Source: Escherichia coli (lineage in GTDB: Bacteria; Pseudomonadota; Gammaproteobacteria; Enterobacterales; Enterobacteriaceae). Taken from it: a stretch of 64,000 nucleotides of DNA. Shown here piece by piece: positions 39,735 to 40,482 of this stretch (the first letter of the stretch is position 1; each line of letters opens with the position of its first letter). The notes below the pieces were generated by a model, which saw only the letters and a program-made list of their open reading frames with translations, ran no database searches and was not told where the DNA came from. The stretch lies in assembly GCF_024502345.1 (NCBI RefSeq), contig NZ_JALDNN010000001.1; one strand, written 5' to 3'. A program made the position numbers and the translations under genes.

Positions 39735-39805
39735 CTAACCGGGAATCAGAAAGACGAAGGCCCCGACCGATATTTCTATCAACCGAGGCCAACGAATGAA
39801 CCAAG
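39735..39805 (-). ncRNA. sokB: Putative SokB antisense RNA (position approximate)
   Basis: By analogy with hok/sok loci, the antisense RNA overlaps the mok translation-initiation region; boundaries not determined from sequence. Confidence 0.3.
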
Positions 39806-39962
39806 CAATTCAGATGTTAGCCTCTTACCCGCCATCCGGCAAGGAGAAAGGCTATGAAGCGCAACCCTCTGGTGGTGTGTCTGCTCATTATCTGCATTAC
39901 GATTCTGGCATTCACACTCCTGACCCGACAAACGCTCTACGAACTGCGGTTCCGGGACGGTG
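39795..39962 (+). CDS. mokB: MokB, translational coupling reading frame for hokB (55 aa)
   Basis: ATG 39795, overlaps hokB in a different frame, as in hok/mok/sok type I TA loci. Confidence 0.6.
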
Positions 39963-40003
39963 ATAAGGAGGTTGCTGCGCTCATGGCCTGCACGTCCAGG
40001 TAA
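39854..40003 (+). CDS. hokB: HokB type I toxin (49 aa)
   Basis: Translates MKRNPLVVCLLIICITILAFTLLTRQTLYELRFRDGDKEVAALMACTSR; followed by GCGCGGGGA/TCCCCGCGC hairpin. Confidence 0.8.
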   Translation: MKRNPLVVCLLIICITILAFTLLTRQTLYELRFRDGDKEVAALMACTSR

Positions 40004-40074
40004 GGGCAAGCGCGGGGATTTTCCCCGCGCATCTGACTAGCAGATTCATTTTCTCATGGCACCCCTTTTACACT

Positions 40075-40248
40075 TCAGTTAGTGCATGTTTTTTTCGATG
40101 CACTAATAGAACCATCATTACAGACAAATTTGCCGCCTGCCGTACAGTGTGAGATCCCCCCTTTCGAACCAGAACAGGGTTTGCGCCCGGCATCGGCATA
40201 AAAGGAAACAAGCGTTCCCATAAACAAAATAAGTGCCAGTTTTTTCAT
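40075..40248 (-). CDS. ydcA: Small Cys-rich protein YdcA (57 aa)
   Basis: Signal-peptide-bearing 57-aa ORF MKKLALILFMGTLVSF… with SD upstream. Confidence 0.65.
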   Translation of the reverse strand: MKKLALILFMGTLVSFYADAGRKPCSGSKGGISHCTAGGKFVCNDGSISASKKTCTN

Positions 40249-40418
40249 ATAACCTCCATGGTTTATCGAATCTTATGTTCGATTTGAACGTTATACGCTG
40301 GTTTATTTTGATACCGTTGATGAGATCAAAGATCGGGTGAATTGATTAAAAATAAGCCAGATGGACGTATGGGCAAGGATTATGGTTTTATTTGTCATAC
40401 AAATAAATATAATAGGCG

Positions 40419-40482
40419 CTTCCGATGTAGACCCGTATTCTTCGCCTGTACCACGGGTCGGTTTTAGTACAGGCGTTTTCTT
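40419..40482 (+). ncRNA. rydC: RydC small RNA (64 nt)
   Basis: CTTCCGATGTAGACCCGTATTCTTCGCCTGTACCACGGGTCGGTTTTAGTACAGGCGTTTTCTT matches recalled RydC; TATAAT -10 at 40406-40411; intrinsic terminator at 3' end. Confidence 0.7.

Follow-up and report, generated by a model that had tools for sequence, protein, structure and literature searches.

We analyzed a 64,000-nt stretch of the Escherichia coli contig NZ_JALDNN010000001.1 (hereafter the window), focusing on the region at 39735-40482. For this region, a reading made from the letters of the DNA without database searches (the sequence-only reading) had proposed the type I toxin-antitoxin locus mokB/hokB, accompanied by the small protein gene ydcA and, downstream, the small RNA (sRNA) RydC. 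We consider it almost certain that the interval containing it is the E. coli chromosomal trg-cybB region, which carries two independent and already characterized RNA-based regulators, hokB/sokB and RydC, together with two small genes, yncP and ydcA. The locus is real, already known and ordinary.

Gene Content of the trg-cybB Interval

The interval between the start of trg (39455) and the stop of cybB (40493) comprises 1037 nt. Alignment with the hokB locus of strain K-12 MG1655, as the sequence-only reading had suggested, revealed 8 substitutions and no insertions or deletions over these 1037 nt (99.2% identity), and the same gene order: trg, sokB/mokB/hokB, yncP, ydcA, rydC, cybB, all of them annotated in K-12, relative to which the window runs in reverse. 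Three of the single-nucleotide polymorphisms (SNPs), at 39567, 40394 and 40490, are intergenic. The site of the K-12 genes hokB, mokB and sokB (b4428, b1420 and b4429) is likewise the same, and no difference falls within the mRNA elements tac, ucb, dcb and fbi, the Shine-Dalgarno (SD) sequence of mokB, the 3′ stem-loop or the editing site recognized by TadA. What distinguishes the window copy from K-12 is a set of substitutions in HokB, MokB and YncP, nucleotide 4 of SokB, and TAACAT rather than TAAGAT as the putative sokB -10 hexamer.

When the whole 64 kb were searched with Rfam at gathering thresholds, exactly two matches were obtained, RydC (RF00505) and hok/sok (RF01794), and a more permissive search of the interval by E-value threshold returned no further RNA family. 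Since this pair of matches is unique in 64 kb and the interval is 99.2% identical to annotated K-12 sequence, the locus lies far beyond chance. Every element listed by the sequence-only reading was found where it had been placed or within a few bases of that position; the start at 39735 lay 27 nt downstream of 39708, where the hokB mRNA leader begins.

Among open reading frames (ORFs) of at least 60 aa, only one occurs in 39456-40492, an antisense frame of 76 aa initiated by TTG (39779-40009, minus strand), in agreement with the earlier remark that only antisense frames are seen here. The locus was invisible in the ORF track because the genes of the interval are either shorter than 60 aa or non-coding. 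Of 5426 complete E. coli genomes, 5416 matched the interval and 4473 contain at least 80% of it in one piece; the closest match was that of the O18ac:H14 strain 873.10 (99.9%). The features are collected in Table 1.

Table 1. Features of the trg-cybB interval, in window coordinates.
Feature	Position	Strand	Description and basis
mokB-hokB mRNA, full length	39708-40069	+	~360 nt; 5′ end by homology, 3′ end approximate
tac	39708-39719	+	mRNA 5′ end; predicted by minimum free energy (MFE) folds to pair with fbi in the full-length form and with ucb in the processed form
sokB	39750-39806	-	57 nt; mapped from K-12 annotation b4429
ucb	39755-39764	+	anti-Shine-Dalgarno box; predicted partner (MFE folds) of the mok SD while the mRNA is closed and of tac once it has opened
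mokB Shine-Dalgarno	39785-39788	+	GAGG, 7 nt before the ATG at 39796
mokB	39796-39963	+	55 aa; open frame overlapping the hokB start (39854) in a different frame
Putative sokB promoter	39814-39841	-	-35 TTGCCG, 17-nt spacer, -10 TAACAT; read from the sequence
dcb	39820-24	+	partner of the mokB SD in the truncated fold
hokB	39854-40003	+	toxin gene, 49 aa, single transmembrane helix; intact frame; Pfam, NCBIfam
TadA A-to-I site	39937-39943	+	CUACGAA, edited A39939; codon 29 TAC, Tyr29 to Cys; putative in this copy
yncP	39981-40049	-	22 aa; K-12 b4774 and RefSeq genomes; antisense to the hokB 3′ end and 3′ stem-loop
3′ stem-loop	40010-18/40022-30	+	GC-rich, perfect 9-bp stem with 3-nt loop; inverted repeat I19
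fbi (fold-back inhibition)	40052-64	+	predicted to pair with the 5′ end; would be lost on 3′ processing
ydcA	40075-40248	-	57 aa, predicted signal peptide; NCBIfam NF007462, 147 bits; PMC11340327
rydC -10 box	40408-40413	+	TATAAT (perfect); no recognizable -35
rydC	40419-40482	+	64 nt; Rfam RF00505
cybB	40493-41023	-	mapped K-12 annotation; NCBIfam equivalog match

The mokB and hokB Reading Frames

As the sequence-only reading had it, mokB and hokB are both open and overlap in different frames. HokB scored 82.5 bits against the Pfam model PF01848 (HOK_GEF, cutoff 22) and 99.2 bits against the NCBIfam Hok-family model NF007279 (cutoff 73), placing this toxin of ~50 aa within the Hok/Gef family. 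We looked for disruptions of the hokB frame and found none; HokB differs from its K-12 counterpart only by the substitutions H3R (SNP 39861) and T19A (SNP 39908), and this allele is already catalogued in RefSeq (WP_023517637.1) and annotated as hokB in the nearest genomes. MokB carries L3Q (SNP 39803), I7M (39816) and D38G (39908) relative to K-12, and no family in Pfam or NCBIfam matched it, as expected for such a frame. The upstream mok frame has its own SD sequence and covers the hok start. In plasmid R1, translation of mok is required for that of hok (PMC9841398), and by analogy with the work on K-12 and R1 the same translational coupling of mokB and hokB probably applies here.

The hokB mRNA and Its Predicted Folding Switch

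The leader of the hokB mRNA matched RF01794 over the full length of the model (39708-39859, plus strand; 111.5 bits, gathering threshold 59), a result that was repeated with the interval alone. A search with the Rfam Sok model had been proposed as a check, and while it did give this strong match, the match lies on the plus strand and represents the hok leader, SokB itself being on the minus strand. Although RF01794 is titled "sok antitoxin," we observed that it matches the sense strand of the hok mRNA in all 9 loci tested (the window and L008-L015), and in eight other hok loci the match shares its strand with the annotated Hok genes. The consensus structure of the family is that of the mRNA leader, so a match marks the toxin leader and not the strand of the antitoxin RNA.

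Position 39708 was taken as the 5′ end of the mRNA because position 1 of RF01794 aligns there on the hok-sense strand. Toward the 3′ end, the segment that pairs with the 5′ end stops at 40064 and is followed by UUUU, and the mRNAs of paralogous loci have comparable lengths of 358-400 nt. A weak -10-like sequence, TAGGAT at 39696-39701, was read by eye and is a candidate hokB promoter. The same intergenic region contains, upstream of trg, a TAAGTAAT-N11-GCCGATGA motif (39495-39521, minus strand) that is unique in the window and presumably resembles a flagellar-class promoter of sigma-28 (FliA), whose consensus we take to be TAAAGTTT-N11-GCCGATAA.

Two folds of the mRNA differed in the way expected of a hok-type switch. 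In the unconstrained MFE fold of 39708-40069, 39708-19 pairs with 40052-64, and 39759-65 pairs with the SD region (39784-90). When the RNA was cut after the 3′ stem-loop (39708-40032), the 5′ end pairs instead with 39755-64, and the SD (39785-89) pairs with 39820-24. These pairings correspond to those known from R1 hok (PMC9841398) as tac/fbi, ucb/SD, tac/ucb and SD/dcb, and ucb is further supported by the first helix of the Rfam consensus structure and by an inverted repeat (I1). The duplex between tac and the 3′ untranslated region (UTR) has a predicted energy of -21.3 kcal/mol, a value also reached by 3 of 1000 sequences obtained by dinucleotide shuffling of the 3′ UTR; none of 300 in a second set reached it, nor did any other 109-nt segment within the window.

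Comparison with paralogues supports the same arrangement. The pairing between the 5′ and 3′ ends is kept at the same relative place in 7/7 paralogous loci and shows compensatory changes (GGGUGCC/GGCACCC in the window; GGGUGCU/A.GCACCC and GGCGCUU/AAGCGCC elsewhere). The window fbi lies 48-62 nt after the hokB stop codon, and the paralogues pair at +45 to +75 nt after that of hok. All seven likewise have a GCGGGG...CCCCGC hairpin 7-12 nt past the stop codon, and its counterpart here, at 40010-30, is a stable post-stop stem-loop that would mark and protect the 3′ end of the processed, translatable mRNA, in the role described for R1 (PMC9841398). The sequence-only reading had noted a "fold-back hairpin" at 40008-40030; the GC-rich hairpin is real, but if the fold-back-inhibition element was meant, the name does not hold, since the folds and the paralogues identify 40010-30 as the conserved 3′ stem-loop of the processed mRNA and place fbi 22 nt further on. 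The paralogues were retrieved by blastn with the Rfam consensus as query and consist of one chromosomal E. coli locus and plasmid loci of Cronobacter, Citrobacter, Klebsiella, Enterobacter, Pantoea and Aeromonas; a tblastn search of plasmids with HokB as query yielded only near-identical hokB copies, mostly from chromosomes mislabelled as plasmids. Eight loci were fetched and one, on an IncY plasmid of E. coli (L015), was excluded as lacking a Hok ORF and end pairing. That plasmid has a full-length hok leader (L015:501-675; Rfam 89.7 bits), with no recognizable Hok ORF after the leader and no pairing of the 5′ and 3′ ends.

All sequence elements of the switch are intact in the window, the refolding is predicted, and the end pairing is conserved in the paralogues. 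The steps that follow from them, 3′ processing, decay through RNase III and toxicity, are those worked out in K-12 and plasmid R1 and would be expected here by analogy. A weakly promoted mRNA of ~360 nt (39708 to ~40069) would arise in a closed form, with tac paired to fbi and ucb covering the mokB ribosome-binding site, and would be inaccessible both to ribosomes and to SokB. Slow exonucleolytic trimming from the 3′ end would halt at the GC-rich stem-loop (40010-30), with loss of fbi, upon which the 5′ end would refold onto ucb and the mokB SD would shift to a weaker stem with dcb. The open mRNA could then be translated, mokB first and hokB through coupling, or alternatively be bound by SokB at the mokB start region and destroyed. 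The product, HokB, would be a 49-aa membrane peptide that collapses the membrane potential.

The Antisense RNA SokB

The sequence-only reading had proposed a type I toxin-antitoxin locus without locating its antitoxin, and the module of mokB, hokB and sokB is confirmed, with sokB now placed by mapping of the K-12 annotation (Table 1). In its predicted fold, SokB begins with an unpaired 5′ tail, the complement of the mokB start, continues with a 14-bp hairpin and ends in a U-rich tail, and a terminator scan reported a terminator-like site within it (39790..39759, minus strand). Annotation and fold together point to a cis-antisense RNA over the mok initiation region with a 5′ tail and a terminator hairpin. 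Compared with K-12, SokB has one SNP (39803), which changes its nucleotide 4 from A to U. The putative promoter agrees with the consensus at 8 of 12 positions, which is below the threshold of our scan, and ends 7 nt before the annotated SokB 5′ end; SNP 39816 alters position 4 of its -10 hexamer.

The locus resembles hok/sok of plasmid R1 in that the mok and hok frames overlap, an antisense RNA covers the start of mok, and the 5′/3′ pairing, the ucb/SD and SD/dcb interactions and the 3′ stem-loop recur. It differs in being chromosomal, and also in that no post-segregational killing was obtained with its K-12 orthologue, a point taken up below.

The TadA Editing Site

The heptamer CUACGAA at hokB codon 29 is the anticodon-loop sequence of tRNA-Arg2, and A39939 corresponds to K-12 A1491986, which is edited by TadA (PMC12214031; PMC5630033). 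The surrounding sequence is identical to that of K-12, and the site falls in a loop in the MFE fold. CUACGAA occurs 8 times in the window against 5.75 expected, and our assignment therefore rests on positional identity with K-12, as the heptamer by itself is not unusual, being neither rare nor enriched. Recoding of Tyr29 to Cys allows a Cys29-Cys46 disulfide and raises toxicity (PMC5630033; PMC12214031; bioRxiv 10.1101/2025.08.07.668861). HokB thus needs RNA editing for this disulfide, whereas most Hok proteins encode the Cys directly (bioRxiv 10.1101/2025.08.07.668861). Overexpression of HokB is toxic, and hokB is the most highly edited mRNA target of TadA, with editing rising with cell density (PMC5630033; PMC12214031). 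Given the identity with K-12, the window copy is probably edited as well, and editing of A39939 would increase the toxicity of HokB through the disulfide.

The sRNA RydC

RydC was found at exactly the coordinates that the sequence-only reading had given. The match to RF00505 extends over model positions 1-64 of 64 with 92.5 bits (gathering threshold 48; E = 5e-17), and the RNA is 100% identical to that of K-12. Its helices 40430-36/40453-59 (7 bp) and 40443-51/40467-75 (9 bp, inverted repeat I20) interleave in a pseudoknot, and nucleotides 1-10 at the 5′ end, the seed, are unpaired. The -10 element and terminator of its own that had been claimed for RydC are also present, the terminator being the helix 40443-51/40467-75 followed by UUUUCUU; our terminator scan missed it on account of its 15-nt loop and gave a spurious 6-bp site inside RydC. 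The K-12 rydC promoter likewise consists of TATAAT without a -35 (PMC11340327). With its 3′ end at 40482, RydC stops 10 nt from the cybB stop (40493), its conserved position, and the nearest differences from K-12 are SNP 40394, 25 nt upstream of the RydC start, and SNP 40490, just downstream. The 64-nt length, pseudoknot helices, seed, TATAAT-only promoter and convergence with cybB are those of RydC in E. coli and Salmonella.

In K-12, YieP acts as a repressor of rydC, and the RNA itself activates cfa and has a modest repressive effect on trpE and pheA (PMC11340327). Since the RNA is identical, RydC in the window would be expected to act as an Hfq-dependent, pseudoknotted sRNA that is transcribed from a -10-only promoter, activates the cfa mRNA and represses a few other targets. 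Across enterobacteria rydC keeps its cybB neighbor, while the other flank differs in Salmonella, Klebsiella, Citrobacter, E. fergusonii and E. albertii (PMC11340327), which suggests that the juxtaposition with hokB is positional and not functional. RydC does lie downstream of the toxin module, as had been described, but as a neighbor and not as a component of it.

yncP and ydcA

The small protein gene ydcA, which the sequence-only reading had also listed, is present; its product is identical to K-12 YdcA and matches an NCBIfam equivalog model (Table 1). yncP follows ydcA at a distance of 25 nt on its strand, the one opposite to that of hokB, and both genes are convergent with hokB. YncP differs from that of K-12 by K6R (SNP 40033), and no family in Pfam or NCBIfam matched it. 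In RNA-seq data, yncP-hokB and ysaE-hokA have been listed as convergent transcriptional overlaps (PMC12288877). One might speculate that a ydcA-yncP transcript, running over the hokB 3′ stem-loop beside fbi, provides a second antisense input to the hokB mRNA, and that its pairing with the hokB 3′ end might trigger cleavage by RNase III or unmask the 5′ end. The idea follows from geometry, as yncP (39981-40049) spans the stem-loop and adjoins fbi (40052-64), and we regard it as a long shot. If true, activation of HokB would be coupled to the expression of ydcA and yncP, independently of SokB.

Natural Disruption of the hokB Locus

Among 60 genomes taken at even spacing from the 5416 with a match, the match breaks at 39766-39781 in 7 and begins only at 39899 in 3. 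The first class reflects the insertion sequence IS150: in strain PD4 (L003:1558-3000), IS150 replaces 66 bp (39715-39780), removing tac, ucb and the 3′ half of sokB. A junction search found IS150 in or beside the hokB leader in ~400 of the 5426 complete genomes, the count of 402 being an estimate that merges the insertion accompanied by the 66-bp deletion with an insertion ~70 nt further on in which the leader is kept. Such insertions parallel the IS elements known beside hokA, hokC and hokE in K-12. The second class is a deletion that starts within trg and reaches codon 16 of hokB (L004:2047-2602; window ~39899 onward). It was present in 309 genomes, among them Nissle 1917, ATCC 25922 and uropathogenic strains, and removes the promoters, sokB and mokB. 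A few genomes have a 153-bp tandem duplication inside mokB/hokB (L005:899-1198; window 39813-39965), with the result that a second and shorter Hok-family ORF is annotated ahead of hokB.

Functional Status and Alternative Explanations

Judged from its sequence, the hokB locus of the window appears to have everything needed for a hok-type switch. Several observations weigh against reading it as a functional one. The ends of the hokB transcript were placed by homology and folding and not mapped. The hokB and sokB promoters fit the consensus poorly, and a promoter scan of 39400-40600 found no sigma-70 site with two hexamers; the promoters of hokB, sokB and rydC are therefore weak or -10-only, and their assignment relies on homology and published work. 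The end pairing was compared in a small sample of 7 paralogous loci, and predictions by MFE can err for RNAs as long as 360 nt. The locus is also often disrupted in nature. Furthermore, studies cited in a recent preprint (bioRxiv 10.1101/2025.08.07.668861) report that K-12 hokB does not give post-segregational killing and is not activated by rifampicin, which makes the physiological output of the switch uncertain.

These K-12 results, together with disruption in a sizeable minority of genomes (IS150 in ~400, the trg-hokB deletion in 309, and internal duplications), could also be explained if hokB/sokB were an intact but physiologically inert relic that is transcribed and silenced, is never toxic in nature, and can be lost without consequence. 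We consider this unlikely. In the window no regulatory element is missing and neither frame is broken, and most complete genomes (4473/5426) retain at least 80% of the interval. In addition, HokB is toxic when overexpressed and is the top mRNA target of TadA, in a density-dependent manner, as described above, and a role of hokB in persistence that depends on Obg and (p)ppGpp has been reported (PMC5349102). Taken together, we favor an intact hok-type module over a relic.

The proximity of the genes, all within ~750 nt, raises the question of whether hokB/sokB, yncP-ydcA and rydC form one functional unit, such as a membrane-stress island with joint regulation of RydC and HokB. A loose membrane link can be drawn, as HokB forms pores and RydC promotes cyclopropane fatty acids via cfa. 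This seems very improbable, however, given that the genes lie on different strands with their own promoters and terminators, that rydC keeps cybB while its other flank differs among enterobacteria (PMC11340327), that rydC is controlled by YieP (PMC11340327) and hokB reportedly by Obg and (p)ppGpp (PMC5349102), and that strains with the trg-hokB deletion retain ydcA and the cybB-side DNA. There is only a negligible chance that the real gene is instead the 76-aa ORF at 39779-40009 (minus strand), with the hok-like features incidental. Although it is the sole frame of at least 60 aa in the interval, it starts with TTG, is the exact antisense of a frame that scores strongly in Pfam, and is unannotated in K-12 and in the RefSeq genomes examined, whereas the RNA structure of the plus strand is backed by Rfam and by the paralogues. 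We therefore retain the reading of two independent RNA regulators and two small genes.

Other Features of the Window

Outside the interval, gapC (gap; 41212-42213, plus strand) is intact and encodes 333 aa; in K-12 it is a pseudogene. Two IS5-family transposase ORFs with identical scores (4086-5054 and 52670-53638, both plus strand) stand at breaks in colinearity with the closest E. coli relative, and these arrangements, counted over at least 80% of the segment, occur in only 7 and 26 genomes, respectively. At 53664-58963 the ynbA-paa-tynA region is decayed, measuring ~9 kb against ~18 kb in other strains. Its remnants include a truncated ynbA-like ORF, a C-terminal fragment of PaaX fused to the N-terminal part of PaaF, a C-terminal fragment of PaaE, and TynA reduced to the C-terminal 342 of 757 residues. 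A 1.3-kb insert beside patD (15356-16668) encodes a CatB-related O-acetyltransferase and is present in 1149 of the 5426 genomes; it is absent from the closest relative of the hokB interval. A putative type II toxin-antitoxin locus, hicAB (~23747-24385, minus strand), and the orphan toxin gene ortT (~14786-14959, minus strand) have coordinates transferred from strain 873.10 by colinearity.

Significance

The locus serves mainly as a quality check, as a reader working without tools correctly recognized a locus that ordinary ORF tracks miss. Biologically, its components are textbook material. RydC is a structurally solved, Hfq-bound pseudoknot sRNA, and hokB is a model for A-to-I recoding of bacterial mRNA. 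The hok/sok system is the paradigm for the control of a toxin by mRNA refolding, and the window copy has all of the regulatory elements, which is useful given that about one in eight complete E. coli genomes has a broken hokB.

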